From a virus (Duplodnaviria; Heunggongvirae; Uroviricota; Caudoviricetes): a DNA stretch of 64,000 nucleotides. The position numbers and the translations under genes are program-made. Numbering within the stretch: position 1 is the first letter of the stretch; each line of letters begins with the position of its first letter. The stretch is from the IMG/VR virus record IMGVR_UViG_3300008110_000029; one strand, given 5' to 3'. Shown in pieces: positions 2,406-53,048 of the stretch. The notes under the pieces are model-generated. The model was not told the origin of the DNA and ran no database searches. It was given only the letters and a program-made list of their open reading frames with translations.

Positions 2406-3434
2406 ATGGTAAAAGCAATACAGAGACTCAAGGATGAAAACACATCCGGTGGTGAGATTGTCGAAACCGATGGCAACACTACTGTTTATGCTAATGATCG
2501 TTTAGTATCTGTTAATACAAGTTTAGTTGGAGAATTCATAGAAGGCGATATACAAGCCAACGATGTAACCGCTAACGGAAGCAATGCAGTGTTTGTTCGT
2601 TTAATTGGAGTCAACTACACAACTAATAAAGACGAAAGTGGTGCTACTAGAATTGGTGGTAGTTCGGACGTTTTTGTTGGAGATGATGTTGATCAAGATA
2701 TTCCTAGTATTAGAGAAGTTGTAACTGCCGACGATCTTGACCTCGATCCTGAAGATCCAGGAGCTGGCCGAAGAAGGTACGAAGAGCTAGTAAGAAATGG
2801 TACTATTAGCAAACGAGAACAAGATGTTGCTTCCCCAAAACCCAGTGGAAAGAAAGATACTGCTCCTAGTAAATTTACCGGGACACCAACAACTGCCTGC
2901 GAAGGAATTGAATTAATAGTTGAACCCCCCGGTCTTCCTCCATTACAGGGATCGGTGTTAGATGCTGTTCAATTGTCACCAAGATTCACTGTTGGAAAAC
3001 TAACTAGAGCTCCTAATATAATTTTTGATCATCCCCTTAAACTTGGTGATTTAAGATTATCATTAGCAGAAACTGTGTGTAATTTAAAATTACTAGCAAT
3101 CAATGTTTTAGAACCTATTTTTTCTAAATACCCAAATGCTTTTATAACAAATACATTTAGACCTGCATCAACAAGTCAAAAAAGTCAACATGTTACAGGA
3201 CAAGCGGTGGATTTGCAATTTAGAAATGTCACTAAAGGTGATTATTATATAATTGCTCAAGATTTAAAAAATTTAGTCCCTTTTGATCAATTTTTATTAG
3301 AATATAAAACTACAGGTACTAGATTACCGTGGATACATATAAGTTTTAGTAAATCCAACAATAGAAAACAGGTTCTTACTTTGCTTAATGATACAACATA
3401 TGGTCAAGGACTAATTGATTTACAGGCACAATAA
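2406..3434 (+). CDS. Hypothetical protein with C-terminal peptidase-M15-like (zinc D-Ala-D-Ala/L-Ala-D-Glu peptidase) motif
   Basis: 342 aa. The C-terminal 'SQKSQHVTGQAVDLQF...WIHISF' fits the M15 'H-x2-G-x-A-x-D ... H' zinc-binding pattern. The N-terminal half is Gly/Asp-rich. Confidence 0.4.
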   Translation: MVKAIQRLKDENTSGGEIVETDGNTTVYANDRLVSVNTSLVGEFIEGDIQANDVTANGSNAVFVRLIGVNYTTNKDESGATRIGGSSDVFVGDDVDQDIPSIREVVTADDLDLDPEDPGAGRRRYEELVRNGTISKREQDVASPKPSGKKDTAPSKFTGTPTTACEGIELIVEPPGLPPLQGSVLDAVQLSPRFTVGKLTRAPNIIFDHPLKLGDLRLSLAETVCNLKLLAINVLEPIFSKYPNAFITNTFRPASTSQKSQHVTGQAVDLQFRNVTKGDYYIIAQDLKNLVPFDQFLLEYKTTGTRLPWIHISFSKSNNRKQVLTLLNDTTYGQGLIDLQAQ

Positions 3435-3844
3435 TGAAAAAATTATTTTGGAACATTTTAGGATTTTTAAGTTTGGGTATGGCCTACATAGGTTTGGTAA
3501 CCCCCGGCATTCCTTACTCACCATTCATTGTATTTTCTGCATATTGTTTTAGCAAAGGCTCAGAACGTATGCATCGTTGGATCTACAATCATAAGATTTT
3601 TGGTCCGTTCTTAACCAACTGGACAGAAAAGCGTGTGTTCCCAACTAAACTAAGATATCTCATGTTAGCCATGATGAGTCTAAGTTTAGTGCTGATGTGG
3701 ACGGGAGGGGTTAAGCCTATAGGGATAATCAGCACAGCAATATTCATGCTTTTAGTTGCAGTGTGGGCCTGGAGATATCCAGCAACACCAGAAGAACATG
3801 ATCAAAGAAAATTAGATAATAAGAGGATTGGATGGCTAAAATAA
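3434..3844 (+). CDS. DUF454 (YbaN-like) inner-membrane protein
   Basis: 136 aa. 'PGIPYSPFIVFSAYCFSKGSERMHRWIYNHKIFGPFLTNW' matches the YbaN/DUF454 signature. Two to three TM segments. Confidence 0.5.
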   Translation: MKKLFWNILGFLSLGMAYIGLVTPGIPYSPFIVFSAYCFSKGSERMHRWIYNHKIFGPFLTNWTEKRVFPTKLRYLMLAMMSLSLVLMWTGGVKPIGIISTAIFMLLVAVWAWRYPATPEEHDQRKLDNKRIGWLK

Positions 3845-4089
3845 CATTGAACGAATTAATTGACATTGCTTTTGCTGCCGAGGAAGGGGATCCAATTGAG
3901 TGGGGAATCTTTACCAACGGTAAAGAACAAGCAATGACAATGATCGGAACTAGTATCTTAGAACAGTTCGACAAAGACATTATTACAGATGAAGATAAAC
4001 TAATACTGTTAGCAACAATTACTAAATTGGTAACAGAAAATATGGTATTAAACACAAAGCTATTGACATTGTCTAAAAAAGATAGTTAA
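3832..4089 (+). CDS. Hypothetical protein (85 aa)
   Basis: ORF only. Confidence 0.35.
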   Translation: MAKITLNELIDIAFAAEEGDPIEWGIFTNGKEQAMTMIGTSILEQFDKDIITDEDKLILLATITKLVTENMVLNTKLLTLSKKDS

Positions 4090-4299
4090 ATAACATATGA
4101 ACGATGATTTAACAAGATTCTTAGTTGGTTTTCTTATAGTCGCGGCTGTGCTTTTTATTATACTACTATGATTTTTAATCTTTTAATTTTAGCATTTGCT
4201 GTATACTGTTTAGTAGTATGGATCCATGCGTTAGTAACATACGATTGGACTAAATTTGAAGAGGATTCAAAAGACGACGATTTTTTGAAACCTTATGAA

Positions 4300-4370
4300 T
4301 AAAGAATTGTTGTAATTCCTTCAAAGTGAAGGCATTCTGGACGCGGGTTCGACTCCCGCCAGGTCCACCA
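4300..4370 (+). ncRNA. ssrA: tmRNA (SsrA) acceptor piece of a permuted two-piece tmRNA: T-arm plus 3' acceptor strand plus encoded CCA
   Basis: Positions 4339-4370 'GGACGCGGGTTCGACTCCCGCCAGGTCCACCA' align with the tmRNA 3' end (E. coli '...GGACGGGGGTTCAAATCCCCCCGGCTCCACCA'). T-stem GCGGG/CCCGC, 7-nt T-loop TTCGACT, acceptor 3' strand CAGGTCC, discriminator A, CCA at 4368-4370. The 5' boundary is approximate. Confidence 0.65.
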
Positions 4371-4491
4371 ATAGAGATGATTATGAACACTACACAAACT
4401 ATAAAATTAGCAGGATTTTTTCTAGGAACGTATATTTTATACAGACTAGGATTAGAAGTTTGGTGTATAGTTTATGGACTACTTTATTGAT

Positions 4492-4738
4492 GGGCCTGAC
4501 ATGGTTTCGACAGGGTGAGATAATAGAGACGGCAACACGGTAGGCGATGACCGTAAATCAAGCAAATCTATAAATGCAAACGATAATGCATTTGACTTTA
4601 CAGCAATGAGCTTCACCGGTAACACTGTTGCCAATGACAGCAAATTTGCTCTAGCAGCCTAAGAAACTGCAAGTCCGGGGTAGCTATACCTTGTAACCCA
4701 AAATAGTGAAAAGCCCCCTTGGGGGCTTTTCTTTATTG
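4492..4738 (+). ncRNA. ssrA: tmRNA (SsrA) coding piece: 5' acceptor strand, tag reading frame (4576..4662, ...ANDSKFALAA-stop) and 3' terminator
   Basis: 4492-4515 'GGGCCTGACATGGTTTCGACAGGG' matches the conserved tmRNA 5' end 'GGGGCUGAUUCUGGAUUCGACGGG'. GGGCCTG pairs with CAGGTCC of the acceptor piece (7 bp, one G-U). The tag frame begins GCA AAC GAT (A-N-D) and ends GCT CTA GCA GCC TAA (A-L-A-A-stop). Confidence 0.65.
4712..4735. terminator. Rho-independent terminator (bidirectional hairpin)
   Basis: 'AAAAGCCCCCTTGGGGGCTTTTCTTT': GC stem flanked by an A-run and a T-run. It lies 3' of the tmRNA coding piece and 3' of the minus-strand gene ending at 4733. Confidence 0.65.
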
Positions 4739-6294: not shown

Positions 6295-6828
6295 ATGAAA
6301 ACAGTTGGTGATAAAATTGAAGCATTTGCCGTAACCGGCGTTAATCCTGGTAAAGATGATTTCTTTACCATTACTGAAAAGTCATACGAAGGTAAGTGGA
6401 AAGTAATTGTTTACTATCCAAAAGACTTTACATTTGTATGCCCAACAGAAATCGTAGCATACGATAAATTGAATAGTGATTTTGCCGATCGTGACGCAGT
6501 ATTACTAACTGGTTCAACAGATAACGAATTCTGTAAACTGGCATGGCAAGCAGCCCATGAAGATCTTAAAAAAATCAAACATGTTCAGTTTGCTGATACA
6601 CAGCGTAACGAATTGAGCCTTATTGATCAGCTTGGCGTATTCTATGCTCCAGCAGGTGCTGCACTTCGTGCAACATTCATTGTTGATCCAGAGAATGTTA
6701 TCCAACACATTACTGTCAACAACTTGAATGTTGGTCGCTCACCAGAAGAAACACTTCGTGTATTAGACGCATTGCAAACAGGTGAACTTTGTGCTTGCAA
6801 CCGTACAGTTGGCGGAGAGACACTGTAA
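6295..6828 (+). CDS. ahpC: Peroxiredoxin, AhpC/TSA family
   Basis: 177 aa. The peroxidatic-Cys motif 'FTFVCPTEI' is present, with C-terminal Cys residues ('CACN'). RBS AAGGAGA sits upstream. The partner ahpD follows with a TAATG overlap. Confidence 0.82.
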   Translation: MKTVGDKIEAFAVTGVNPGKDDFFTITEKSYEGKWKVIVYYPKDFTFVCPTEIVAYDKLNSDFADRDAVLLTGSTDNEFCKLAWQAAHEDLKKIKHVQFADTQRNELSLIDQLGVFYAPAGAALRATFIVDPENVIQHITVNNLNVGRSPEETLRVLDALQTGELCACNRTVGGETL

Positions 6829-7343
6829 TGACTGCTTGGGTAGATCAAATTAAAGAAACTATTCCGGACTATGCTAAAGACACTCGTCTTAACATTGATG
6901 CAGTAGTTAAGCGTTCTACTCTACCCCAAGAAGAAGCAGAAGCTGTTGCTATCGCAGCGGCTTTTGCCACAGGTAATAGTAAACTGTGGACTTGGATGCA
7001 GAGTCAGGCAATAGATAAGAAAGAAGCTGAAGCAGCAGTTACCGCAGCTAGTCTAATGGCCATGAACAATGTATGGTACCCATTCGTTGAAATGGCTGAG
7101 GATCCTAATCTAACAGGATTACCGGCACAGTTGCGTATGAACGCAATTACTACACATGGCGGCACTACTAAAGCAAGATTTGAAGCATATTCTTTATCTG
7201 CTAGTATTGTTGGCAAGTGTCATTTTTGTGTGAAAGCACATTATGAAACACTCAAGCAAGAAGGATATACAGTAGAACAATTACGTGATATTGGGCGCAT
7301 AGCGGCAGTTATCACCAGTGTATCCAGAGTACTAAATAGTTAA
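6828..7343 (+). CDS. ahpD: AhpD-like alkylhydroperoxidase (carboxymuconolactone decarboxylase family)
   Basis: The 'CHFCVKAH' Cys-x-x-Cys-x-x-x-His motif is typical of AhpD. The start was taken as the ATG overlapping the ahpC stop (TAATG). Confidence 0.75.
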   Translation: MTAWVDQIKETIPDYAKDTRLNIDAVVKRSTLPQEEAEAVAIAAAFATGNSKLWTWMQSQAIDKKEAEAAVTAASLMAMNNVWYPFVEMAEDPNLTGLPAQLRMNAITTHGGTTKARFEAYSLSASIVGKCHFCVKAHYETLKQEGYTVEQLRDIGRIAAVITSVSRVLNS

Positions 7344-7383
7344 TCGCCGTAACAGAACTGTAATCTTAGGTCTCTTAAATAAG

Positions 7384-7417
7384 AAGGTACAACATAGTGT
7401 TGTACCTTTCTTTTTAT
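7384..7417 (+). terminator. Rho-independent terminator after ahpD
   Basis: 'AAGGTACAACATAGTGTTGTACCTTTCTTTTTATT': 11-bp stem followed by a T-run. Confidence 0.65.
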
Positions 7418-7439
7418 TCACTCACACAAGGAGATTACA

Positions 7440-8307
7440 GTGAAAAAAATCATACTGACACTACTGGCGGCATTGACCGTTTCAGCACATGCAGCGGATC
7501 TAACAGGAGCAGGGGCAACATTTCCTTATCCTATCTATTCAAAATGGGCCGAAGCATATAAAGCAGCAACAGGCATCGGACTCAACTATCAATCAATTGG
7601 TTCAGGCGGCGGCATCCGTCAAATCAAAGCTAAGATTGTAGATTTTGGCGCCAGTGACATGCCACTAAAACAAGACGAATTAGACAAAGACGGTCTAATG
7701 CAATTCCCTGCAATCATTGGCGGAGTTGTGCCGATTGTAAACATTGATGGTATTGGTGCAGGACAACTTAAACTTACCTCAGACATTATTGCTGACATCT
7801 ATATGGGTAAGATCGTCAAGTGGGATCATCCCAGCATCACAGCAATCAATCCAGGATTAAAATTACCTAATGCAAATATCTCTGTGGTTCACCGCAGTGA
7901 TGGTTCAGGTACAACCTTTATATGGACTAACTGGTTAAGCAAGACTAATAAAGAATGGGCAGATAAAGTCAAAGACGGCACCGCAGTCAAATGGCCAATG
8001 GGTGTAGGTGGTAAGGGCAATGAAGGTGTAAGTGCTGTGGTCCAACAACTAAAAAATAGTATTGGTTATGTAGAATATGCCTATGCTAAACGCAACAAGA
8101 TTCCACACGCACAAGTCAAAAATCGTGATGGCAACTTTGTACAGCCTAGCGATGATACATTCAAGGCAGCGGCAGCAGGTGCAGACTGGGCAAATGCTCC
8201 AGGGTTCTATCTATTGTGTACATCTTCCACAATCTGTTATTACATTAGTACAGAATCATTGGAAGACTCAGTTAAAAGATAAGGATAGCAACGCTATTTG
8301 GAAGTAA
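7440..8307 (+). CDS. pstS: Phosphate-binding periplasmic protein PstS; the 3' end appears frameshifted (main frame to 8282, conserved C-terminus continues in +1 frame to 8307)
   Basis: GTG start with RBS AAGGAGA and a signal peptide. 'LTGAGATFPYPIYSKWAEAYK', 'FGASD', 'HRSDGSGTTF' and 'GYVEYAYAK' match PstS throughout. The +1-frame ORF 8077..8307 ends 'LPQSVITLVQNHWKTQLKDKDSNAIWK', matching the PstS C-terminus '[26 protein letters not shown]'. Confidence 0.75.
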
Positions 8308-8317
8308 GCAGTACCCA

Positions 8318-8337
8318 CCGCCAGTGATCACTGGCGG
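8318..8337. promoter_or_regulatory. Perfect 20-nt palindrome CCGCCAGTGATCACTGGCGG between pstS and the porin gene (terminator or operator)
   Basis: The 10-nt arms are exact reverse complements. It is followed by a weak T-tract, 23 nt before the porin start. Confidence 0.3.
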
Positions 8338-8359
8338 ATCTATTTTATAAGGATTTAAA

Positions 8360-9772
8360 ATGAAAACATTACTTAAGGTAATGCTGGCGTCATCTGTGAC
8401 AGCATTTATACCTGCACCTGCACACGCAGACGAATACAAAGACACACTTGAAATTCTAAAAAATAAAAATATTCTTACACAGAAAGAATATGATATTAAA
8501 CTTAAAGAATATGAAGAAAAAGAAGAAAACAAAAAGTTTATTGAACAGAGAATTGACAGAGATGTCAGCGACTCAGTCAAATACAGACAGGCCAGAGTTA
8601 ATGACGGATCAGTCACAGAAAACGGAATTGGACTCAAAAGCAAAGATGGCGGCAACACCGTCCAGCTTACAGGTCGACTACATATGGACTATCGTCAGTA
8701 CTCCCCGGATTACGGTACAGGTCAAACCACAGATTCGTACCAGAATACTGCTGAAGCACGACGAGCCAGATTTGGAGTAAGAGGTCAGTTTGCCAAAGAT
8801 TTCAAATATCAATTATTAGCAAACTTTGGTGCCAGTGATGGTTTTAGTTCAACATCGAGTACAGCAGATGAAATGTGGGTCAACTATGCTGCAAATCCAG
8901 AAGCACAGTTTCAATTTGGTTTATTCAAGATGCCATTCAGTCTTGAGCAGTTAACAAGTTCAAACAATCTTGACTTTATGGAACGCAGTTTAATTGGTCA
9001 AAATGATACAGAGTTTATACCTGCTAAAGAAACTGGATTTATGTTACATGGTATTCCTAAGCCTGGCTTAACATACGCTCTAGCATTAAGCAGAGGTAAG
9101 AGCAATAAGAGTGCCGAGTTTGATGGCTTTGACTACATTAGTCGTGTAACTACAAACATCGCTGAACTAACCGGAAGCAAAGCATATACAGCACATTTAG
9201 GTGCCGCTTATAGTACAGGTGAAATCAAAAGCGGTGTAGCTCCAGCAAGTGGTAGAACAGAATCACGTATGCAATCAGGATGGTTTACAGGATCTGCTCT
9301 TAGCGGTGCAACTACAAGAACACGTCAAGGCCTCGAAGCTGCATTTGCTTATAATGCATTTAAGGTGCAAGGCGAACATTTTCAATTTAATTATGATCCT
9401 GCAACAGGTAACGATCAGAAAATAAATGGATACTATGTGCAAGCTGTGTATAATCTAACAGGTGAGTCACACTCATATAAAGATGGCGCATTTGGTTGGA
9501 TCAAACCTGCTAATCCTTTGGACAAAGGTGGTCGTGGTGCATGGCAAGTTGGTGTACGTATGAGTGAGTTTGATGCCAGTGACATTACTGTAGCTACCGG
9601 CAAATCAAATCGTGCTACTGCTATGACATATGGTGTTACCTGGTTCTGCACAGACAACCTACGTTTTATGTTAAATTATGTAGACACAAAATTTGATAGT
9701 CTAGTAGGCAGTTCAGGTAGTCGTGTAAACGGCGAACGTGCTGTTATGTTTAGAAGCCAACTAAGTTTTTAA
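8360..9772 (+). CDS. Phosphate-selective porin O/P family outer-membrane protein
   Basis: 470 aa. Signal peptide 'MKTLLKVMLASSVTAFIPAPAHA', a charged coiled N-terminal segment, then a long Gly/Tyr/Ser-rich beta-strand region ending in C-terminal '...SQLSF' (terminal Phe). Position next to pstS. The resemblance to OprP/OprO is from memory. Confidence 0.6.
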   Translation: MKTLLKVMLASSVTAFIPAPAHADEYKDTLEILKNKNILTQKEYDIKLKEYEEKEENKKFIEQRIDRDVSDSVKYRQARVNDGSVTENGIGLKSKDGGNTVQLTGRLHMDYRQYSPDYGTGQTTDSYQNTAEARRARFGVRGQFAKDFKYQLLANFGASDGFSSTSSTADEMWVNYAANPEAQFQFGLFKMPFSLEQLTSSNNLDFMERSLIGQNDTEFIPAKETGFMLHGIPKPGLTYALALSRGKSNKSAEFDGFDYISRVTTNIAELTGSKAYTAHLGAAYSTGEIKSGVAPASGRTESRMQSGWFTGSALSGATTRTRQGLEAAFAYNAFKVQGEHFQFNYDPATGNDQKINGYYVQAVYNLTGESHSYKDGAFGWIKPANPLDKGGRGAWQVGVRMSEFDASDITVATGKSNRATAMTYGVTWFCTDNLRFMLNYVDTKFDSLVGSSGSRVNGERAVMFRSQLSF

Positions 9773-9793
9773 TAAATAACTTGGCATTTATAA

Positions 9794-9820
9794 TGCCCCA
9801 TCTAATGGGGCTTTTTTTTG
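9794..9820 (+). terminator. Rho-independent terminator after the porin gene
   Basis: 'GCCCCATCTAATGGGGCTTTTTTTT'. Confidence 0.75.
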
Positions 9821-9830
9821 GACACACTAA

Positions 9831-10010
9831 ATGGAAACACACAAACGAACACTAACACGAGCAATTACATGGAGAATTACCGCAACTCTTATAACTGCGG
9901 CATGGACAGGATTGGCAGGAGCTATCGTTATTAATATTTTTATGACTGTTGCCCACTACATACATGAACGATTTTGGCTAAAAATTGAGTGGGGTAAACA
10001 GATCAATTAG
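9831..10010 (+). CDS. Small two-TM membrane protein, DUF2061-like (59 aa; not in the supplied ORF track)
   Basis: ATG at 9831 to TAG at 10008. 'TRAITWRITATLITAAWTGLAGAIVINIFMTVAHYIHERFW' resembles the DUF2061 small membrane protein family. Confidence 0.35.
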   Translation: METHKRTLTRAITWRITATLITAAWTGLAGAIVINIFMTVAHYIHERFWLKIEWGKQIN

Positions 10011-10032
10011 CCTATTTTAATGAATTTCACTA

Positions 10033-10061
10033 TGGTTTTCTGGTAGTTTTTATCATATAAT
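10033..10061 (+). promoter_or_regulatory. Candidate sigma70-type promoter for the pqqA-like ORF (-10 TATAAT at 10056-10061)
   Basis: A perfect TATAAT sits 57 nt upstream of the ATG. The -35 is weak (TGGTTT). RBS AAGGAG lies 7 nt before the ATG. Confidence 0.3.
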
Positions 10062-10118
10062 GCAGATACATACTGTTGCAATAGTATGTTTTTATTGTTG
10101 TTAAAAAGGAGAAGCATT

Positions 10119-10190
10119 ATGTGGACCAAGCCAGAAGCAACCGAGATGCGTTATGGTTTTGAGATCACTATGTACATCGCTAATCGCTAA
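10119..10190 (+). CDS. pqqA: PqqA-like 23-aa peptide (pyrroloquinoline-quinone precursor family)
   Basis: Translation [23 protein letters not shown]. This matches PqqA peptides (e.g. Klebsiella [23 protein letters not shown]) in length, the MW(T/K)KP start, R-x-GFE-(I/V)-T-x-Y and the conserved Glu/Tyr pair. It has its own RBS and terminator. Confidence 0.6.
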
Positions 10191-10209
10191 TACATAGTAT
10201 CAAAAATCA

Positions 10210-10235
10210 AAACCCGCTCCGGCGGGTTTTTTCTT
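10210..10235 (+). terminator. Rho-independent terminator after the pqqA-like ORF
   Basis: 'AACCCGCTCCGGCGGGTTTTTTC'. Confidence 0.75.
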
Positions 10236-10293
10236 GACTTTTATTGCAAATATGTTATACTATATGCTCAGTAACTAATTTTGGAGATATACT

Positions 10294-10665
10294 TTGAGTA
10301 TGCATTTGGAAGGTCCGTGGCTCAGTACCACAGGCAAGAAAAAAAGCAAACGTAAATTTCGTAATGCTGAAGAAGCACGTAAGTCTCGCGAGTTACAAGA
10401 TTCTTGGCAGTCGTTGTTAGAAAAGTATGATGTGCCAAAAACTAGTAAACAGAAAAAATTTGAACCATTAAAGGCCAAATCAGCACCTATAAGAGAGACT
10501 CCAAAGATTCCTAGTCTTCCTTTTACTGCTGGACCTTGTACTAAACCAGAGCAGAAAGTTTATACTGGTACAAAAGTTAAAGGTATTGGCACTATGCATA
10601 AAAGTAATGCTGTTCCAATTTTTTCAGACGAAGAAGCTGTAGAAATTGCCAAAATGAGGCGATAA
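10294..10665 (+). CDS. Hypothetical basic protein (123 aa, Lys/Arg-rich N-terminus)
   Basis: ORF with a preceding A/T-rich region. 'GKKKSKRKFRNAEEARKSRELQ' suggests nucleic-acid binding. No specific family. Confidence 0.4.
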   Translation: MSMHLEGPWLSTTGKKKSKRKFRNAEEARKSRELQDSWQSLLEKYDVPKTSKQKKFEPLKAKSAPIRETPKIPSLPFTAGPCTKPEQKVYTGTKVKGIGTMHKSNAVPIFSDEEAVEIAKMRR

Positions 10666-10729
10666 TACCACATTTTAGTACCAAAATGAGTGATATATGC
10701 TATATAAAAATACGTTTCGCAAAGAAACT

Positions 10730-10900
10730 AAGATAGTAGAACCAAAGTATGTCAAAAGCTGAAACGGTTCCGCGAGTCTTGGCCAATTGGAAACCCGTGA
10801 GATTCGGGCGGTCAAGGCTCCAAAGGCACACAAGTTATGAGATTGTGCGTCCAATGGAGACAACTACACGAACCCAGGGTTCTTCATTTAGAGCCTCGTG
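10730..10900 (+). other. GC-enriched, apparently structured non-coding segment upstream of the endolysin gene (candidate cis-regulatory or small RNA)
   Basis: In a roughly 35% GC genome this roughly 170-nt stretch is near 50% GC. It contains several short complementary segments (CCGCGAG/CTCGTG; CCCG-N7-CGGG; GAACC-CAG-GGTTC). No convincing ORF. The 62-aa minus-strand ORF in the track has no start context. Confidence 0.25.
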
Positions 10901-10965
10901 AAGTTTACTCCCTTAATGTAATGTAATATGAAGTTCGTATTACACCAAATGAAAGGAGATACAAA

Positions 10966-11505
10966 ATGGAAAAAGTAATAAAACCTATAATTTTGATTAT
11001 TGGGTTAGTACTAACAGTAATGTCTATTAAAGCTGTTACAGCCGTAAAACTAAATCAATTAAAACAGACAGCAGGAGTTTCTTATTCTGATGTTGTCACA
11101 ATTCGTGAACGTGAGCGTCAGTTAGATTGCTTGGCTAGAAATATCTATCACGAAGCGGCCAGCGAACCATTTGAGGGTAAAGTTGCGGTAGCACAGGTTA
11201 CAATGAACCGTGCATCCAGCGGCAAATTCCCAAATGATATTTGCGGTGTTATATACCAAAAGAATGTTTTCTATGAAAAAGTAGTTTGCCAATTTAGTTG
11301 GTACTGCGAAGGTCACGGTAAAAGCAAACCAATTCGTAGCAAAGAAATGTACGACGAATCATATCGTGTTGCTAAAAAAGTATTGTTAGAAAACTTTAGA
11401 CTTGACGTTATGAAAGAAGCCATGTATTATCATGCTGATTACGTGAACCCTCAATGGGGTAGAGAAAAGATTGGCAAAATTGGTCGTCATATATTTTACA
11501 AATAA
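10966..11505 (+). CDS. Cell-wall hydrolase, SleB/CwlJ family, with N-terminal signal-anchor (SAR-endolysin candidate)
   Basis: 179 aa. N-terminal TM 'IKPIILIIGLVLTVMSIKAV'. 'LARNIYHEAASEPFEGKVAVAQVTMNRA' matches the SleB hydrolase_2 core. RBS AAAGGAGA. A holin-like gene follows. Confidence 0.7.
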   Translation: MEKVIKPIILIIGLVLTVMSIKAVTAVKLNQLKQTAGVSYSDVVTIRERERQLDCLARNIYHEAASEPFEGKVAVAQVTMNRASSGKFPNDICGVIYQKNVFYEKVVCQFSWYCEGHGKSKPIRSKEMYDESYRVAKKVLLENFRLDVMKEAMYYHADYVNPQWGREKIGKIGRHIFYK

Positions 11506-11514
11506 GGATTAAGA

Positions 11515-11826
11515 ATGGAAAAGTTTGAGTTGTTGTTTAATAAATGCAGAGAATTTTTATCTACCAAATTAAGTCACATCAGTAGCGAAGCTTTGGGTTG
11601 GTTAGCTACTATTGTGATTCATGCATCAACCTTGCCAACGTTTCTTGCAGTTATGATGGGATTAACTGACAAGCTACCTGGCGTTGATATCATTCTAATG
11701 GTTTGGGGTGGACTAACCTTGTTGTTCTTTAGAGCCGTGTTAATCAAAGACATGCTCAATGTAGCAACAATTGGATTTGGTTTTATTCTTCAAGCTGTAT
11801 TCATGTCACTGATTTTCTTTAAGTAA
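11515..11826 (+). CDS. Small membrane protein, holin candidate
   Basis: 103 aa with two to three TM segments. It is immediately downstream of the endolysin candidate. Confidence 0.35.
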   Translation: MEKFELLFNKCREFLSTKLSHISSEALGWLATIVIHASTLPTFLAVMMGLTDKLPGVDIILMVWGGLTLLFFRAVLIKDMLNVATIGFGFILQAVFMSLIFFK

Positions 11827-11908
11827 TTTTGGTAATCACCGTAGTTGACTTTGGTCGACTGCGGTGTTATATTAGTAACTGTCTTAACACACACAGAAAG
11901 AGGCATTA

Positions 11909-12384
11909 TGAAAAAGGCAATTTTAGTAGGCTTAATGGCAGCGGCTATTACAGGCTGTTCGTCTATGAAAGATATTCCAGAACGTAAAACTTATGCTCAA
12001 CCTAGTTGGTATCAGGATTGCGCACAAGAAGGCATCAAAGGCTGGTTCTGGTGGAAAGAAGACTATGTCTATGCCTGCGGTGCAGGTGAATCAGCATACG
12101 CACAGGCTGCTGAAGAGCAAATGGATGCAATTGCAATGAATAACTTTGCAAAACGCATTAATGGTACAGTAAACTCTGAAACTGTAATTGATATCAAAGA
12201 CGATAAGAAAACTACTCGTACACTGATTTCTTACAAAGTTACTGATACTGCTATTCGTCGTCACGTCAAGACCGAAAAAGGCCACTTTACGATGAATGGA
12301 CGCCACTACACTTATGTACGGCTTGAAATGAAAAAGTCTACATTTGAACAATTGATGAACGAAGCTAAACAGAAAGCACAATAA
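11909..12384 (+). CDS. Lipoprotein (possible spanin component)
   Basis: 'MKKAILVGLMAAAITGCSS' lipobox. The start was taken at the ATG preceded by GAAAGAGG. It is the third gene in the lysis cluster. Confidence 0.5.
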
Positions 12385-15366: not shown

Positions 15367-15758
15367 TGAATAAAATTACTTTGGTTACTGAGCCAGATGA
15401 TATACTGGTAGATGCTTTTAGAATATTGTGCGTAAATCTAACCGTAGATCAAACACAGTTTCTTTCTGACATCGTAAATGATATGGAATATATAGTTGAC
15501 ACTGTTGTATATGTTTGGAACGATGGAGATGACGAAAAATGGTTATTTGATAAAAAGACAAAAAGTAATCTAATTGTCTTTAATGCAAGTACAGAATGTG
15601 GAGAGATAAATGGATATCTAGCTGCACAACCAAATTCGTTTTATTTTGGTCCTCTCAGAAATTTATCTCTCGTAAATATTAGAGATATATATGATGCAAC
15701 AGATTTTAAAGATACTTTATTAGAATATATCAGGAAATATGAACAAATTTACGAATAA
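15366..15758 (+). CDS. Hypothetical acidic protein (130 aa)
   Basis: ORF only. Confidence 0.4.
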   Translation: MNKITLVTEPDDILVDAFRILCVNLTVDQTQFLSDIVNDMEYIVDTVVYVWNDGDDEKWLFDKKTKSNLIVFNASTECGEINGYLAAQPNSFYFGPLRNLSLVNIRDIYDATDFKDTLLEYIRKYEQIYE

Positions 15759-15978
15759 ACCTTCTGGTAGTGTAGTTACAGTTAAAGATGGCGAAGATAT
15801 TAATCGTGCTCTTAGACGTTTTAAGAAAAAAATAGAAGAATCCGGCACACTTGACACCCTCCGTAAAAAAGAATTTTACGAAAAACCTACTACAGAACGT
15901 AAGCGTAAAAAATCAGCGGCTAAGGCACGTTGGCGCAAACAATTACGTTCACAAGAATTACCACCTAAACTCTATTGA
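15739..15978 (+). CDS. rpsU: Ribosomal protein bS21
   Basis: 79 aa. '[58 protein letters not shown]' follows the bS21 pattern (E. coli '[60 protein letters not shown]'). Confidence 0.88.
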   Translation: [79 protein letters not shown]

Positions 15979-16009
15979 CATCTGAAAGAAAGTAGTTTAT
16001 AATAGTACT

Positions 16010-16591
16010 ATGAACTCAGATATAATGATAGACCTCGAAACCCTTGCCACCACTCCTGATGCTGCAATTTTAAGTATTGGCGCAGTGAAATTTGATCCGT
16101 TTGGGCAAGAATTAAAAGAACCAGCAATGGAAAGTTTTTATCTACGTGTAGATATTGACAGTTGTGATCGGTTAGGATTAGCTACATCACAAGATACTCT
16201 TGAATGGTGGGCAAAACAAAGTCAAGCAGCTCAAGACGAAGCATTTGGAACCGAAGGTAGAGTTGATATTGTTAGTGCTATGAATCAACTTTATAAATTC
16301 TGTTGGGGTGCTAAACGTGTATGGAGTCACGGTGCTGGCTTTGACGTTGTTATTTTAGAAACAGTATTTCGCAAAATGGGAAAAGGTTACCCTTGGAGTT
16401 TCTGGCAAGTAAGAGATACTAGAACAATTTTTGATCTTGGTATCAATCCAGACCGCCCTGAAGTATTAGCTCACCATGCGTTACACGATTCTTATAATCA
16501 AGCAATTGGTGTGCAAAATGTTTTCCGTAGATTGCGAACATCGTCGACATTAGACGGCCAATTGCTTTCTCCATTAAAGGATTCAAGATGA
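16010..16591 (+). CDS. DEDDh 3'-5' exonuclease (DnaQ-like/RNase T-like)
   Basis: '[23 protein letters not shown]' is Exo I motif D-x-E. '[11 protein letters not shown]' is the Exo III H-x4-D motif. Confidence 0.62.
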
Positions 16592-17667
16592 GAATCGAAG
16601 ATGAAATCAAATTAGATTTCAAAGATGTTCTTATTCGTCCTAAGCGCAGTACTTTATCAAGTCGCAAAGAAGTTGACTTAACAAGGACTTACAAATTTAA
16701 ACACAGTCGCGCCGAGTGGACAGGAGTTCCGATTATGGCCAGTAACATGGACGGTGTTGGTACACTAGAAATGGCTCATGCTCTATATCAACACAAAATG
16801 TTCACTTGCCTAGTTAAGAATATCAGTACGGTATACTTTGAAACAACCGTACAAGATATAGGAGGCAATCATTTCGCAGTAAGCACAGGGACTTCCGAAA
16901 AGGACTTTGAAAGATTAAGTAACATACTTAATTCTTATTCCGAAATAAAATTTATCTGTATAGATGTAGCAAATGGATATAGCGAACACTTCGGGGACTA
17001 TGTAGAAGAAGTGCGTGAGGCATTTCCTAATCACACAATTATCGCAGGTAACGTTGTTACCGCAGACATGACACAGGAGTTAATTTTACGTGGAGCAGAT
17101 ATTATCAAAGTGGGCATTGGTCCAGGCAGTGTTTGTACAACTAGGATACAAACTGGCGTCGGTTATCCTCAGCTCAGTGCTATTATTGAGTGTGCTGACG
17201 CTGCTCATGGTCTCGGCGGCCATATTATTGCTGATGGTGGTTGTGTGTGTCCCGGTGACATTGCTAAGGCGTTTGGCGCCGGAGCAGACTTTGTAATGTT
17301 AGGAGGCATGTTAGCCGGTCATGATGAGGGCGGCGGTGAAGTTATTGAAGAAATGCACGAACTTTCAAAACTTCAAAAAGATATGTTTTCAAATGATTAT
17401 GAAATTAAAAAATATGTAGAATTCTATGGAATGAGTTCAAATACTGCTATGAACAAGCATCATGGTGGCATAGCTGAATATCGTTCATCAGAAGGACGTA
17501 CGGTAAGAGTACCGTATAAGGGCCCGGTCCAAAGTACAATTTTGGATATGTTGGGCGGACTGCGTAGTTCTTGCACATATGTAGGTGCTGCAAGTCTTAA
17601 ACAATTATCTAAATGTACTACATTTATTAGGGTCAATATGCAATTTAATGATGTCTTTACGAGATAA
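16588..17667 (+). CDS. guaC: GMP reductase
   Basis: 359 aa, near-colinear with E. coli GuaC: '[26 protein letters not shown]', '[36 protein letters not shown]', '[14 protein letters not shown]', '[12 protein letters not shown]'. Confidence 0.92.
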
Positions 17668-17748
17668 ATAAAAACGCAATTAGCACCCAATGGGCTAATT
17701 GTAACGAGCTCAGTGCTCATTAAATTCTTACTTTTTAAGGAGAAAAAT

Positions 17749-19662
17749 ATGTCAAAAATCATCGGTATCGATTTGGGTACCACAAACTCATGTGTAGCTG
17801 TTATTGAAAACGGCAAATCCAAAGTAATTGAAAACTCAGAAGGCGCAAGAACAACTCCGAGTATTGTTGCTTATACAGACAGCGATATTTTAGTAGGTGC
17901 TTCAGCAAAGCGTCAGGCGGTAACTAATCCCAAAAACACAATTTATGCATCTAAGCGGTTAATTGGACGTAAGTTCAATGAACAGGCTGTTCAGAAGGAC
18001 ATTGACCTAATGCCTTATGAAATTGTCAAGGCAACAAATGGTGATGCTTGGATTCGCGCACAAGGAAAAGAAATGGCACCTCCACAGGTGTCTGCAGAAG
18101 TTCTTCGCAAGATGAAAAAGACTGCAGAGGACTATTTAGGGCATGAAGTTACACAGGCTGTTATTACAGTGCCTGCTTACTTCAATGATAGTCAAAGACA
18201 GGCAACTAAAGATGCCGGTCAAATCGCTGGCTTAGAAGTTCTACGTATTATTAACGAACCTACTGCGGCTGCATTAAGCTACGGTGTTGACAAGACAGAC
18301 AAAGCTGATCGTAAGATTGCGGTGTATGACTTAGGTGGTGGCACATTTGATATCAGTATCATTGAGATTGCCAACGTCGAAGGCGACAAACAAATTGAAG
18401 TATTGTCAACAAACGGCGATACATTCTTAGGCGGTGAAGACTTTGACCAGCGCATTATGGATTATCTGGTTGAGGAATTTAAGAAAGAGCAAGGCATTGA
18501 TCTAACTAAAGATATGTTGGCACTACAACGTCTTAAGGACTCTGCTGAAAAAGCTAAGATTGAATTATCTAATTCTACACAAACTGAAGTTAATCTTCCA
18601 TACATTACTGCCGATGCTAGTGGTCCTAAACATCTAGTGGTAAAAATTACCAAGGCAAAATTGGAACAGTTAGTTGACGATTTAATTCAACGTTCATTAG
18701 AACCTTGTCGTATTGCTATGAAAGATGCCGGAGTTACCGCAGATCAGATCGACGAAGTTATTCTAGTTGGCGGCCAAACTCGCATGCCAAAGGTACAAGA
18801 AGAAGTAGAACGTTTATTTGGAAAAGCGCCACGTAAAGATGTTAACCCAGACGAAGCAGTAGCAGTTGGTGCTGCTATCCAAGGTGCTGTGTTGGGTGGT
18901 GATCGTAAAGATGTCCTATTGTTAGATGTTACTCCATTAACTTTGGGTATTGAAACAGTAGGCGGTGTAATGGCCAAACTGGTTGCTAAGAATACTACTA
19001 TTCCAACTAAGGCAAATCAAATTTTCAGTACAGCTGATGACAATCAACCTGCTGTTACTATTCGTGTGTTCCAAGGAGAACGCGAATTGGCACATCATAA
19101 CAAATTGTTAGGCGAATTTAATCTTGAAGGTATTGATCCAGCACCACGTGGTATGCCTCAAATTGAAGTTACATTTGATATTGATGCTAATGGTATTTTA
19201 AGCGTAAGTGCCAAAGACAAAAATACTGGTAAAGAAAATAAAATTACCATTAAAGCTAATAGCGGCATTACTGAAGATGAAATCAAACGTATGATCGCTG
19301 AAGCAGAACAATATGCAGAAGAAGATAAAAAAGCACGTGAAGTTATTGAAACACGTAATGGTGCATTATCTGAACTGTATACAATTCGCAGAGAATTAGA
19401 AGCAGAAAAAGATCTTGCTACAGAAGAAGAATGGAAAATAATTGAAGATGCACTAGAGGCTGCTGAAAAATTAGTCAATGATAATAGTGACATTGAAGAA
19501 ATTAAGAAAGGTCCTTTCAATGTAGCCGATGCTGCAAAACCTTTGTTTGAAAAAATTAAAGCCAAACGCGAAGCTGCCAAAGCAGAACAATCTGCACCGC
19601 AGCCAACTGATGGTGAAGTGATCGATGCTTCCTTTACAGCAACTGAAGGCAAGGCATCTTAA
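17749..19662 (+). CDS. dnaK: Molecular chaperone DnaK (Hsp70)
   Basis: 638 aa. '[15 protein letters not shown]', '[11 protein letters not shown]', '[11 protein letters not shown]' and the substrate-binding domain are all present. RBS AAGGAG at -8. The start was taken at the internal ATG (17749), not the track's 17713. Confidence 0.95.
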
Positions 19663-19753
19663 GAATACACATATGTGTGTATAATGTTGCGGTACCTAAT
19701 GGGCCGCAACATTGAGCATAAAGCTCATATTCTTACTTTAAAAGGAGATTAAT

Positions 19754-20191
19754 ATGAATAATAATCAGTTAGCACAAATTACAGCTCTTAACAGAGCTCT
19801 TATTGGATTTGACACACTGTTTGATCAAATGGAAAGACGTTTTTCTAATAGTGTATCTAATAACTATCCACCTCACAACATTCTTAAAACTGGTGAAAAT
19901 CAGTATGAGATTCAATTAGCAGTTACTGGATTTGATAAAACAGAAATTTCTGTTACTGTAGAGGACGGAATTCTTATTGTTAAAGGTGAAAGCATGGCTA
20001 CAGATCATGCGCCAGAACAATACATTCATCGCGGTCTTGCTACTCGCGATTTTGTTAAAGAATTTCCTCTAGCAGAACATATTGAAGTTACTGGAGCGGA
20101 AACCAAAAATGGTATGTTAACCATTAAGTTGGTCCGTAATGTTCCAGAGTCTGCGAAACCGAAAGTCATTGACATTGTAGACATTAAGTAA
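19754..20191 (+). CDS. Small heat-shock protein (Hsp20/alpha-crystallin, IbpA-like)
   Basis: 145 aa. 'PPHNILKTGENQYEIQLAVTGFDKTEISVTVEDGILIVKGE' is the alpha-crystallin domain pattern. RBS AAAGGAG. Confidence 0.8.
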   Translation: MNNNQLAQITALNRALIGFDTLFDQMERRFSNSVSNNYPPHNILKTGENQYEIQLAVTGFDKTEISVTVEDGILIVKGESMATDHAPEQYIHRGLATRDFVKEFPLAEHIEVTGAETKNGMLTIKLVRNVPESAKPKVIDIVDIK

Positions 20192-38071: not shown

Positions 38072-39001
38072 ATGCAACCAGTACAAATAGCTATGTCGGG
38101 AGTTACTCCCGGAACTTATGGAAACAACACCCAGATTCCTTCTTTCACAGTTGATGCTAGAGGTAGACTAGTATGGGCTGCAAATGTTGATATTCAATCA
38201 ACATTTAAATTTAAGGTTAATGATGACGATAGAATTGAAACCGTTAATTTAAGTAATGATTCATTCAATTTTAGAAGTGGACATGGAATCAATATAACAC
38301 CGGCACCAGACGGAATTAATATTGATTTTGATAGATCAATAATTCCCGATACTAGTGACTTTGTTAGAAAATCAGAAACATCTCATCAATTTTTAGGATC
38401 TATAAGATCTCCGTTAATTTATTCTCAAGAAGGAATATTTGATTCAGTTACTACAAAAGAAATATTAATAGATGGTGTATATACTAGATTTCAAACAAAA
38501 GGGTTCCATGTAGATTTTACAGACTTTGATGTTCTTGATTCTAAAGTTTTTCAAATCGATGGAATTTCAAAAAATACTAATACTGAAACAGCAAATTTTA
38601 ATGTTGATATTACATCTTCTTGGTTAAAATTCACCAGTCAAATTGAACTTCCTAATTCTGCTTTAAGTTTTCCAGATGGCCATGCTTTGGGAATTATTTC
38701 TTTTCAAGATGGCGGAATTGAAATGGGATATGGTGCAGGATTAATTGCTATCAAAAATTTTAATAATGATGGATCTTCACCGACAGGAATTTGCGTTATT
38801 ACTTCAAATGGGAAAGATGATATTTTTGAAAATCCAACAAAGTTTAACTTTGGTGGCGACGGAGTATTTGAAGCACCAATTTTAAAAACAAAAAGCTATA
38901 CAAGTTTGCCAGATAATCCCAAAGAAGGTTGGATAGTATTTGATGGCAACAACAAACAATTTAAAGGGTGGAACGGAACTAGTTGGATAACTTTAGGATA
39001 A
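38072..39001 (+). CDS. Tail-fibre-like structural protein
   Basis: The N-terminal 'MQPVQIAMSGVTPGTYGNNTQIPSFTVDARGRLVWAANV' resembles the phage tail-fibre 'G-x-Y-x-x-V-T-V-D-x-x-G-R-V' repeat. The rest is Gly/Asn/Asp-rich beta-type sequence. Confidence 0.45.
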   Translation: MQPVQIAMSGVTPGTYGNNTQIPSFTVDARGRLVWAANVDIQSTFKFKVNDDDRIETVNLSNDSFNFRSGHGINITPAPDGINIDFDRSIIPDTSDFVRKSETSHQFLGSIRSPLIYSQEGIFDSVTTKEILIDGVYTRFQTKGFHVDFTDFDVLDSKVFQIDGISKNTNTETANFNVDITSSWLKFTSQIELPNSALSFPDGHALGIISFQDGGIEMGYGAGLIAIKNFNNDGSSPTGICVITSNGKDDIFENPTKFNFGGDGVFEAPILKTKSYTSLPDNPKEGWIVFDGNNKQFKGWNGTSWITLG

Positions 39002-40535
39002 GAGGTTTAAAATAATCTCTTATTATTGTTTCTTTAAACATTTCTGTAAAATTAATAGACTTAATTAAATTTTGATATTCTTTATCTGTTAAATCTAAAT
39101 TTTTTTCTCTATTGCTTAGTCTACTATCATTAAAACTACTAATATAAAAATCTCCTCGATACGGCTTATTCTTCAATGTAGAATTTAATTCTTGCGAAAG
39201 TAATTCGGCCTGTTCGTAGCTGTTTATATCAGTATCATCATCTTTTCTCCAACTAAAGAAATTTATATCGGGATTAGGAAAATAATAACCATACTTTGAA
39301 TAATTGCGATCAATTTCACTCATATACATGTATTTCATAATATTGTGATTACCAATAATACTTAAAGGAAATGTGTTAGCTAAATCTATTGGGCAATCTT
39401 TTCTTTTAAAAAATTCAACAGCCTTATAAATTGTATCTGTACTTTCGTAAGGTAAACCTATAATAATCCCCGAAGCAATGTAACTTCGATCTCCCCAAAT
39501 TTCTTTACACTGATAGATAGTATCTATTAATCTTTCACTAGCCATCCCCTTACCAATAAACTTTGCAGTTTTTGGATTAAATGTTTCTAGACCAAAGTAA
39601 GTTTCTGCTATACCGGCATCTTTTAGTAATTGTATTTGCTCTGGGTGTGCCGCTAATAAATCTGCTCTTAGATAACACCAAAATTTTAATTCAAAAGGCA
39701 AACTCTGACTAACATCTGCAAACATCTGCATCTTTTCTGTACTATCATTAAACGTATCATCAACAATAAAATATTTTGTTGTTCCCCATTGTTCATAATT
39801 TTCTAAGAGTTCTCTACGTATAACATCAGCTTGTTTAAGATAGTTGACTGTTTTCTGTCCTATCAAAGGATACGAGCAATAGGCACATTTAAATTTACAA
39901 CCTCTGCTGACTTCTAAATTTAAAGTTTCTTGAGGTTGTATTAAATCCCAGGACGTATATGAAGTAGTACTTAATTTAAAATCCCATGTTGGATTGTGCG
40001 CCTTACGATCATGATCTATAATTCTATTAAATATCCTTTTTGTTTTTCCCGACAGAGAATCTAACAAATCAATAGTTTCAGTTTCTCCTAATCCGACTAT
40101 AACATAATCTGTAGGAGCATTAAGATAAAAATCAATCCTTGCACCACCCAACATTGTTTTTGTTTTTAAATTACATTGTTTGACATAATCGATCCAGGGT
40201 TTATAATTATCTCGAGCAAACTCAGTAACTAAACTTGGAATCTCAAATCGTTCTTTATCTGTTCCTGTTCCTTCTCCCGGATTACTGGTTCTAACACCAA
40301 TATCAGGAAACTTAAAAGGCATCCATGTTGTACTATAGCCAACTAGTAATGTGTTTGGTCCAATTGCTTTATCTAATATTTCAGTGTATATTTCCCAAGT
40401 AACAAGAGAGCTAAAATTAATTACTAAACAGCTATAACCATAATTGCGTATATGACTGGCTAATCTGTGTACACCATAACCTCTAGATTTAATATTAAAT
40501 TCTACAGTGTCAGTAAAAAGAATAACATCAAACAT
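38979..40535 (-). CDS. B12-binding radical-SAM enzyme (class B radical-SAM methyltransferase-like), copy 1
   Basis: 518 aa. N-terminal Rossmann-like B12-binding region. 'NLEVSRGCKFKCAYCSYP' is a Cys-x3-Cys-x2-Cys radical-SAM cluster motif. Confidence 0.75.
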   Translation of the reverse strand: MFDVILFTDTVEFNIKSRGYGVHRLASHIRNYGYSCLVINFSSLVTWEIYTEILDKAIGPNTLLVGYSTTWMPFKFPDIGVRTSNPGEGTGTDKERFEIPSLVTEFARDNYKPWIDYVKQCNLKTKTMLGGARIDFYLNAPTDYVIVGLGETETIDLLDSLSGKTKRIFNRIIDHDRKAHNPTWDFKLSTTSYTSWDLIQPQETLNLEVSRGCKFKCAYCSYPLIGQKTVNYLKQADVIRRELLENYEQWGTTKYFIVDDTFNDSTEKMQMFADVSQSLPFELKFWCYLRADLLAAHPEQIQLLKDAGIAETYFGLETFNPKTAKFIGKGMASERLIDTIYQCKEIWGDRSYIASGIIIGLPYESTDTIYKAVEFFKRKDCPIDLANTFPLSIIGNHNIMKYMYMSEIDRNYSKYGYYFPNPDINFFSWRKDDDTDINSYEQAELLSQELNSTLKNKPYRGDFYISSFNDSRLSNREKNLDLTDKEYQNLIKSINFTEMFKETIIRDYFKPLILKLSN

Positions 40536-42138: not shown

Positions 42139-42161
42139 CTAGTTATTTAAGTGAGATATCT

Positions 42162-45502: not shown

Positions 45503-45510
45503 GAAAAATA

Positions 45511-46876: not shown

Positions 46877-47124
46877 TCTTTTTCTTTTTCTATCATCATT
46901 AACACAAAGGTATTAATATTTTTCCAAGATTTAATAAATTCTTCGTTATTATCTAACCATTGTTTAAATTCATCACTTTCTAAATAATCTTTATAATCTA
47001 CATGGTCAATGTTTTTTATAAATTTGCTAATGCTATACATAATATCAGCCGGAGTATCCATTTCGTTTGTCATTGCAATTATGTTATAAATTTCTTCTTG
47101 AAGATTATTCATAAGAATTAACAA
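46867..47124 (-). CDS. Hypothetical acidic protein (85 aa)
   Basis: ORF coupled to the downstream rSAM gene. Confidence 0.3.
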   Translation of the reverse strand: MLILMNNLQEEIYNIIAMTNEMDTPADIMYSISKFIKNIDHVDYKDYLESDEFKQWLDNNEEFIKSWKNINTFVLMMIEKEKDYL

Positions 47125-53031: not shown

Positions 53032-53048
53032 AAGTCTATAAATACCGC

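Follow-up and report, generated by a model that had tools for sequence, protein, structure and literature searches.

A stand-alone pqqA gene in a 64-kb viral DNA and in phages of unrelated backbones

The pqqA reading frame

The 64,000-nucleotide DNA described here, IMG/VR virus record IMGVR_UViG_3300008110_000029 (Caudoviricetes), which in its full length we call the window, contains a 72-base open reading frame (ORF) at positions 10119-10190 of the plus strand, reading from ATG through 23 codons to TAA. In a first-pass annotation of this DNA, the 23-residue product was described as similar to PqqA, the precursor peptide of pyrroloquinoline quinone (PQQ), and a search with the PqqA profile was proposed as a check. 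We observed that the peptide matches NCBIfam TIGR02107 (PqqA) with 38.2 bits (E 8.8e-10) over model positions 1-21 of 21, and Pfam PF08042 with 35 bits; the curated cut-offs of the 2 models are 20 and 21.1 bits, respectively. The similarity was thereby borne out, and, as far as sequence profiles can do so, both curated models confirm the 10119-10190 product as a genuine PqqA.

Members of the PqqA family are short peptides (about 20-40 residues) with a Glu-x3-Tyr pair, and the window peptide has this size and retains the pair as Glu15 (10161-10163) and Tyr19 (10173-10175), within the segment Glu15-Ile-Thr-Met-Tyr19. In the established biochemistry of PQQ these are the 2 residues that PqqE cross-links (PMC7678222, PMC9851590). 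A back-translated PqqA pattern had a single match in the 64-kb window and none in 100 dinucleotide-preserving shuffles of it, even when 2 mismatches were allowed. The peptide has Tyr12, Ile16, Ile20 and Ala21 as variant residues. We also considered a 34-residue form that would begin at an in-frame upstream ATG at 10086; this start is not preceded by a ribosome-binding site (RBS), and stop codons break the frame in 2 related viral contigs (L099 and L008, introduced below), so we take the 23-residue form to be the real one.

Signals flanking the gene

The anatomy of the pqqA cassette was read from an alignment of the window with 3 related viral contigs, L099, L074 and L008, in which the whole cassette, from an upstream palindrome to the terminator, is kept at 71-79% DNA identity. 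On the plus strand, a -10 hexamer, TATAAT, can be read at 10056-10061; L099 and L074 have the same hexamer, and L008 has TATACT instead. The -35 region is poor, and a promoter scan did not score the site as a full sigma-70 promoter. A hairpin of the 5' untranslated region (UTR), ACATACT-(8-nt loop)-AGTATGT, can be read at 10068-10089 of the same strand, and across the 3 relatives its stem is invariant and its loop variable; a role in stabilisation or regulation of the mRNA may be suggested for it. The Shine-Dalgarno sequence AAGGAG (10106-10111, plus strand) lies 7 nt to the 5' side of the ATG.

The gene is followed on the plus strand by an intrinsic terminator (10209-10232) with a 9-bp stem, a TCCG loop and a T run. 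The hairpin, AAAACCCGC-TCCG-GCGGGTTTT, spans 10209-10230 and has a predicted folding energy of -15.3 kcal/mol (z = -4.07), with no shuffled sequence folding equally well. Also, the stem is altered in a compensatory manner in L099, L074 and L008, from CCCGC/GCGGG to CCCAC/GTGGG. A terminator scan flagged this hairpin for the minus strand alone, but the T run that follows it on the plus strand can be read directly from the sequence. An independent -10 element, an AAGGAG RBS and a strong terminator had all been claimed for the gene in the first-pass annotation, and each of them stands, with the qualification that the -35 region is weak.

Directly to the 3' side of the terminator, the next gene (10294-10665) has a promoter-like sequence of its own, TTGACT-16-TATACT, from which we conclude that pqqA is an independent transcription unit. 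A search of Rfam over positions 9750-10320 returned no known RNA family, just sub-threshold matches driven by the terminator. A search with a fixed-spacing pattern made from the conserved promoter region of the relatives gave no match; the window copy contains an indel that breaks the pattern.

Occurrence of pqqA among phages and bacteria

A scan of IMG/VR with the back-translated pattern identified pqqA on at least 120 contigs. Several residues, among them the cross-linked Glu and Tyr, were set by the pattern, and their conservation is thus by construction. The 120 viral copies listed comprise 108 distinct coding DNAs, every one of which stops exactly after codon 23. Arg11, which lay outside the constraint of the pattern, is invariant among them and is specified by 5 different codons, and a Shine-Dalgarno-like motif is located at -18 to -4 in 119 of the 120. 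Enrichment of the sequences GTATAAT and TATAATA was seen around positions -56 to -65. Genes found beside the viral copies encode YqaJ, Sak, DUF3310, DnaB, an M15 peptidase, Hsp20, capsid protein and a gp44 clamp loader, and none of these neighbours is universal. These observations show pqqA to be a stand-alone gene in unrelated phage backbones and, to judge from the sequences compared, its peptide to be kept by selection across viral lineages.

Genomes, one per species, were scanned with the pattern MWTKPxxTEMRxGFE[IV]TMY, which defines what we call TEMR-type PqqA, and at least 120 loci with 127 copies were found. Among the genomic loci listed, 79 are titled Methylophilaceae or Methylophilales, and most of the others carry higher-rank labels only. 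The genera represented are Methylophilus, Methylotenera, Methylobacillus, Methylovorus, Ca. Methylopumilus and Novimethylophilus. Among the matches listed, the commonest viral PqqA peptide is identical to the commonest genomic one, and hairpins, which are enriched downstream of the viral copies, are present there in 62% of the viral and 87% of the host copies. Structure in the 5' UTR is moderately enriched over the viral and host copies taken together.

These comparisons bear on a suggestion of the first-pass annotation, that the peptide is a decoy. As a decoy or inhibitor, it would titrate host PqqD, PqqE or a regulator and so shut down PQQ synthesis. Phages often encode small inhibitors, and at least 3 positions set the window peptide apart from the host copies sampled. 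However, a decoy would be expected to have lost Glu15 or Tyr19, and in the viral copies sampled these substrate residues are strictly conserved, as is the core of the peptide. This conservation was in part imposed by the search pattern; Arg11, the exact length of 23 codons and Asn22 are conserved even though the search pattern did not constrain them. Many viral peptides, the commonest among them, are identical to host peptides, and a block in methanol oxidation would presumably starve the phage of energy. We consider a decoy function very unlikely.

Even less credible, in our estimation, is that the gene is host DNA acquired by accident and now without function, or that the window itself is bacterial. 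The window does contain many genes of cellular type (those for transfer-messenger RNA (tmRNA), ribosomal protein S21, DnaK, PstS, a porin and GMP reductase). Yet frame, length, RBS and terminator have been preserved through the 108 distinct coding DNAs, and DNA similarity between the window pqqA and host copies, which amounts to 77-83%, is confined to the RBS and the coding sequence, which argues that capture of the gene was not recent. As for the window as a whole, the neighbours of pqqA fall into phage families, relatives are found in IMG/VR and among PhiW-14-like phages, and many of the ORFs match no Pfam family.

A tblastn search of phage records with the window peptide identified 9 records of isolate methylophages (Melnitz with 3 sister records, Venkman, MEP301, MEP401, MEP402 and P19250A) and a freshwater Caudoviricetes contig (Manatee Spring), all at 70-74% identity. 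In the isolates, which are phages of 35-44 kb and 141-kb Kyanoviridae with backbones unrelated or distant to that of the window, the 23-residue peptides are encoded by stand-alone genes in intergenic gaps. In MEP301, MEP401, MEP402, Venkman and P19250A (our locus L248), the matching DNA bears no annotated feature whatever, and the Melnitz records and that from Manatee Spring have only a 'hypothetical protein' there. In Melnitz-1 (L246, MZ577095.1), the match is at 74888-74953, and the overlapping 'hypothetical protein' (74848-74943) lies on the opposite strand. The Venkman gene (L249) is oriented against all of its neighbours. The papers on Melnitz and on MEP401/402 do not mention pqqA. With only 23 codons, the gene is missed by gene callers; 8 of the 9 isolate methylophage records lack an annotation of it and the other has just the opposite-strand ORF, and the viral potential for PQQ is probably undercounted.

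Two 'Acinetobacter phage MD-2021a' records were left out of the phage count; their matches lie in bacterial operons of pqqABCDE, with fur and ppk alongside. One of them, the 144-kb L247 (CAKLQF020000010.1), contains fur, ppk and a full pqqABCDE set and, although filed as phage, looks like bacterial chromosome.

A palindrome upstream of viral and bacterial pqqA

Just to the 5' side of the promoter, at 10018-10032, lies a palindromic, operator-like site, TAATGAATTTCACTA, of the form T[A/C]ATGA-N3-TCA[T/C][T/G]A. It matches 11 of the 12 core positions and is the sole exact match to the pattern in the 64-kb window. The 15-bp palindrome is kept in L099, L074 and L008, and the motif is present in the loci sets L126-L245 and L006-L125. 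Scored at 10 or more of the 12 positions, it is found upstream of 61% of the Methylophilaceae-type genomic pqqA copies listed (background 0.6%, median position -128) and of 35% of the viral copies listed (background 1.4%, median position -89). The motif resembles the core of the Escherichia coli Fur-box consensus; a literature search for pqqA together with a Fur box found no paper. A divergent TonB-dependent receptor gene was considered as the owner of the palindrome and rejected, the 742-residue 'ORF' in question being a spurious antisense frame in high-GC metagenome-assembled genomes (MAGs). The common palindrome offers a handle on the regulation of pqqA in the Methylophilaceae, of which we found no description in the literature.

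Host family and the PQQ pathway

In the genomic set, pqqB follows only about 23 of the 127 pqqA copies listed, from which it appears that an orphan pqqA feeding a distant operon is the rule in the Methylophilaceae. Hyphomicrobium denitrificans, a methylotroph with 5 pqqA copies, has an orphan copy among the 2 most highly expressed ones (PMC9851590). The first-pass annotation had asked whether likely hosts encode pqqBCDE. In a MAG of Ca. Methylopumilus universalis, pqqA is followed by genes whose products score 394 bits with the PqqB model, 329 with PqqC, 113 with PqqD and 515 with PqqE, all above the equivalog cut-offs; the likely host family should thus be able to process the peptide. Most probably, then, the phage infects a freshwater bacterium of the Methylophilaceae.

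That no pqqB-E genes adjoin the window pqqA had been noted from the sequence, and we could extend this statement to the whole window with tblastn and profile hidden Markov models (HMMs). Neither the window nor any of 125 loci from relatives or viruses gave a PqqB, PqqC or PqqD match by tblastn and host-built profile HMMs, and the same methods found for PqqE in the window just an 18-bit match to the radical S-adenosylmethionine (SAM) core. The isolate methylophages, too, have no pqqB-E genes close to pqqA. The arrangement of pqqA beside pqqB, pqqC, pqqD and pqqE is therefore not seen in the window; it is not obligatory for PqqA.

The window peptide resembles host PqqA (TIGR02107/PF08042), and especially the orphan copies of methylotrophs, in its 23 residues, its MWTKP start and its R-x-G-F-E-[IV]-T-M-Y core. 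Like most host copies, the window gene is not beside pqqB, is followed by a hairpin terminator and has the palindrome upstream. Unlike host PqqA, it is phage-encoded, has no pqqB-E genes within 64 kb and specifies a combination of variant residues of its own.

Radical-SAM genes of the window

The first-pass annotation had placed 3 SPASM-type radical-SAM enzymes 33-53 kb downstream of pqqA and had proposed the peptide as a possible substrate of them. This part of the description had to be revised. We found 6 radical-SAM ORFs, located at 38979-57348, about 29-47 kb downstream, none of which has a Pfam SPASM match at E <= 0.001 and none of which is PqqE-like: the best score with the PqqE model was 35.1 bits, against a cut-off of 381.35. 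A paralogous pair (38979-40535 and 40528-42138) resembles B12-binding class B enzymes, and 2 further class B-like ORFs (47105-48898 and 55861-57348) both have a detectable Pfam B12-binding domain. Of these 4, the best partial matches were with models of PhpK, lipid-ladderane or KedN5 type, and every score was far short of its cut-off. The ORF at 43198-44277 is TrsS/Tes-like, with an N-terminal zinc ribbon, and that at 50761-51822 resembles a tungsten-cofactor maturase with a Cys-rich C-terminal tail (CxxC...CC...CxxxC), which is possibly twitch- or SPASM-like.

Could these enzymes act on the peptide, to yield PQQ by a non-canonical route or a new peptide made by ribosomes and modified after translation (RiPP)? 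The presence of 6 such genes in one window invites the question, as does the arrangement in L074 (IMGVR_UViG_3300028275_000480, 96 kb), in which pqqA is followed after 70 nt by a gene for a 501-residue class B radical-SAM protein (2773-4419) that is 43% identical to the product of window ORF 38979-40535. Moreover, class B includes RiPP C-methyltransferases, models of which the window genes match weakly, below threshold. Against this stand several observations. The window has no enzyme that approaches PqqE (35 versus 381 bits with the PqqE model, 18 bits with the PqqE HMM), no Pfam SPASM domain was listed, and tblastn and HMM searches of the window and the viral loci, which cover recognizable PqqD relatives, gave no PqqD-like element. 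The nearest radical-SAM gene is encoded about 29 kb from pqqA on the other strand; in L074 the 2 genes are separated by the pqqA terminator. Any radical-SAM gene near pqqA was seen in only 1-2 of the 120 viral loci listed, adjacency being limited to L074, and none is annotated within 3 kb on either side of pqqA in Venkman or P19250A (~39 kb). Precursor and maturase genes thus do not cluster over the relatives, and, as most pqqA phages have no radical-SAM gene nearby, pqqA does not depend on one. The proposal that the peptide is a substrate of the phage's own radical-SAM enzymes is accordingly left unsupported, and we regard it as highly improbable. Improbable to a like degree is a more limited version, in which the peptide, in the phage family of the window, is additionally modified by class B radical-SAM enzymes.

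Proposed role of the phage gene

We think it likely that the window pqqA is a functional, self-contained auxiliary metabolic gene, of the kind called a moron, of a large phage of lytic type, and that its product feeds the PqqBCDE enzymes of the host. A boost to host PQQ supply had been among the 3 functions offered in the first-pass annotation, and it is the one that best fits the recurrence of the gene in phages, the identity of viral with host peptides and the presence of pqqBCDE in the likely hosts. The properties by which auxiliary metabolic genes are recognized can be seen here: a viral genome, as judged from context, a homolog in a host pathway, and maintenance by selection. That the pathway is the host's follows from the finding that TEMR-type PqqA belongs mostly to the Methylophilaceae and that pqqBCDE are present there and absent from the phage loci.

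In the scheme we propose, the cassette would be transcribed from its own promoter, possibly under a host-type operator retained from a host pqqA, to give a short mRNA bracketed by the 5' hairpin and the 3' terminator. From the established PQQ pathway, the peptide would be bound by host PqqD and cross-linked between Glu15 and Tyr19 by host PqqE, after which a host peptidase would trim the cross-linked peptide and PqqB and PqqC would finish it into PQQ. PqqA is the only component consumed one-for-one with each PQQ made, and its supply would stop when host transcription is shut off. As the host already has the enzymes, which act catalytically, a gene of 72 bp would be sufficient. It could keep PQQ going to the periplasmic PQQ-dependent methanol dehydrogenase (XoxF/MxaF), and so might sustain energy generation through a long infection of a slow-growing methylotroph.

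Several points weigh against this interpretation. Expression of the phage gene, its processing by the host and its benefit to the phage are predicted from sequence, and the host assignment is likewise one that we infer. The Tyr12, Ile16 and Ile20-Ala21 variants occur together in no sampled host copy, the best host match being identical at 20 of 23 residues. PQQ is a stable cofactor, and the interpretation assumes that additional precursor is of benefit within one infection cycle. A search for homologs of the window PstS gave no host signal: nearly none of its 8000 matches is named, and the sole name is that of an actinobacterial MAG (75% identity). Finally, the window is 64 kb of a genome that probably exceeds 200 kb, and pqq enzymes or a methanol dehydrogenase may be encoded elsewhere in it.

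PqqA has been described before in a phage. Coutinho et al. (2020, Microbiome, PMC7678222) reported it in VP_266, a population of T4-like methylophages from Lake Baikal, and proposed the same role. The window resembles VP_266, by description and not by direct sequence comparison, in being from a freshwater phage of low G+C content (35% there, ~37% in the window) with a predicted Methylophilaceae host and ribonucleotide reductase genes, and in having pqqA without other pqq genes, an arrangement read in that study as an auxiliary metabolic gene for methanol oxidation (PMC7678222). Unlike VP_266, the window contains no methanol dehydrogenase gene. Those authors also linked PQQ synthesis to radical-SAM proteins of a companion population, VP_139 (PMC7678222); in contrast, the radical-SAM genes of the window, when tested, proved not to be PqqE-like. 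The Baikal data raise a variant of the explanation that we prefer, namely that the cofactor serves mainly a phage-encoded PQQ-dependent dehydrogenase located outside the window. Both Baikal populations have methanol dehydrogenase genes, VP_266 together with PqqA (PMC7678222), and the greater part of a genome that is probably larger than 200 kb would lie beyond the 64 kb seen. Nevertheless, none of the 4 window ORFs of 590 or more residues has a PQQ-dehydrogenase domain, and methylophages of only 35-44 kb carry pqqA too. We consider this variant unlikely.

Viral pqqA is also among the viral genes of phosphorus cycling listed in 2026. While phage pqqA is thus already known, its breadth, in isolate methylophages of several lineages and in viral contigs numbering at least 120, appears to be new in the searchable literature, as do the conserved cassette and the operator-like motif.

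Supply of host PQQ by a phage precursor gene would resemble the case of cyanophage psbA, in which just the part that is consumed or rapidly turned over is phage-encoded and the host machinery supplies the rest. The product here differs from that of psbA in being neither a reaction-centre protein nor an enzyme, but a sacrificial precursor peptide of 23 residues.

The OM43 and LD28 methylotrophs, which are abundant in oceans and lakes, take in their carbon and energy through PQQ-dependent methanol dehydrogenase. If several unrelated phage lineages carry a PQQ precursor, cofactor supply would be a bottleneck of the infected cell and infection would alter methanol turnover. On the practical side, the TEMR-type peptide could serve as a cheap marker for predicting Methylophilaceae as the hosts of phages. 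A wider proposal, which we put forward tentatively and hold to be somewhat less probable than its negation, is that pqqA is a near-universal and independently acquired hallmark of Methylophilaceae phages and among the smallest of auxiliary metabolic genes, that the cassette retains the host operator (Fur-box-like) and with it a metal/redox circuit, and that precursor, and not the capacity of the enzymes, limits PQQ during infection.

The window as part of a large phage genome

From the context of its genes, we conclude that the window, which contains no structural genes, derives from a large phage, possibly a jumbo phage, with a host of betaproteobacterial type; the full genome is probably larger than 200 kb. 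The gene directly to the 3' side of pqqA is a member of phrog_27048 (E 7e-37), and Delftia phage PhiW-14 and Acidovorax phage ACP17 have homologs of it; the other PHROG matches among the pqqA neighbours include an endolysin family. NrdB of the window is nearest to that of large Xanthomonas and Stenotrophomonas myoviruses. Contigs L099, L074 and L008 are syntenic IMG/VR relatives, and DNA of the window recurs in several freshwater metagenomes, the porin gene being found once on a contig of the 0.2-1 Mb class. Among 50,697 phage records, neither a near-identity DNA search with positions 9000-12000 nor a protein search with a 626-residue ORF gave a match, which indicates a phage without a close sequenced relative.

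The functions encoded include ribonucleotide reductase subunits, tmRNA, AhpC, a carboxymuconolactone-decarboxylase-like protein, PstS and a phosphate-selective porin, and also a SleB-type wall hydrolase, S21, an enzyme of the GMP-reductase/IMPDH family, DnaK, Hsp20 and a low-GC block rich in radical-SAM genes. The tmRNA, a two-piece (permuted) molecule, is located at 4272-4732 on the plus strand and was detected both by ARAGORN and with Rfam beta_tmRNA RF01850 (135.9 bits, gathering score 84); its score with tmRNA_permuted was 152.6 bits. The tag peptide given by ARAGORN is ANDNAFDFTAMSFTGNTVANDSKFALAA. The window tmRNA is thus of betaproteobacterial type, whereas that of Melnitz is reported to be alphaproteobacterial-like.

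Upstream of pqqA, a run of host-like genes on the plus strand (6295-9772) encodes an AhpC/peroxiredoxin, a protein of the carboxymuconolactone-decarboxylase family, PstS and a porin O/P. The phosphate-selective porin O/P has 470 residues and a Pfam score of 176.7 bits; a phage-encoded phosphate porin of the outer membrane, adjoining PstS, is unusual. The PstS ORF (7440-8282, plus strand) has 280 residues. In 5 metagenomic copies of the same phage the protein has 341 residues (L001, 8923-9948), with 99.6% identity over 261 residues, and the window gene seems to have a frameshift or indel near 8220, as a pseudogene, a variant or an assembly error.

Genes for ribosomal protein S21, the GMP-reductase/IMPDH-family enzyme, full-length DnaK (Hsp70, 838 bits) and Hsp20 lie in a row at 15739-20191 on the plus strand, and a translation and chaperone set of this kind, from S21 to Hsp20, is typical of very large phages. 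The G+C content is about 37% in the first 36 kb and 29-35% in the block at 38979-63612. This low-GC block, mostly on the minus strand, contains the 6 radical-SAM genes and several ORFs without a family match. Also encoded in it are a SAM methyltransferase (51806-52444), a protein of the TIGR02466 family (52429-53031) and an aminotransferase of class III (53678-54862). Hypermodified DNA is a known feature of relatives of PhiW-14, and the radical-SAM block of the window could be a pathway for modification of DNA or of glycans.

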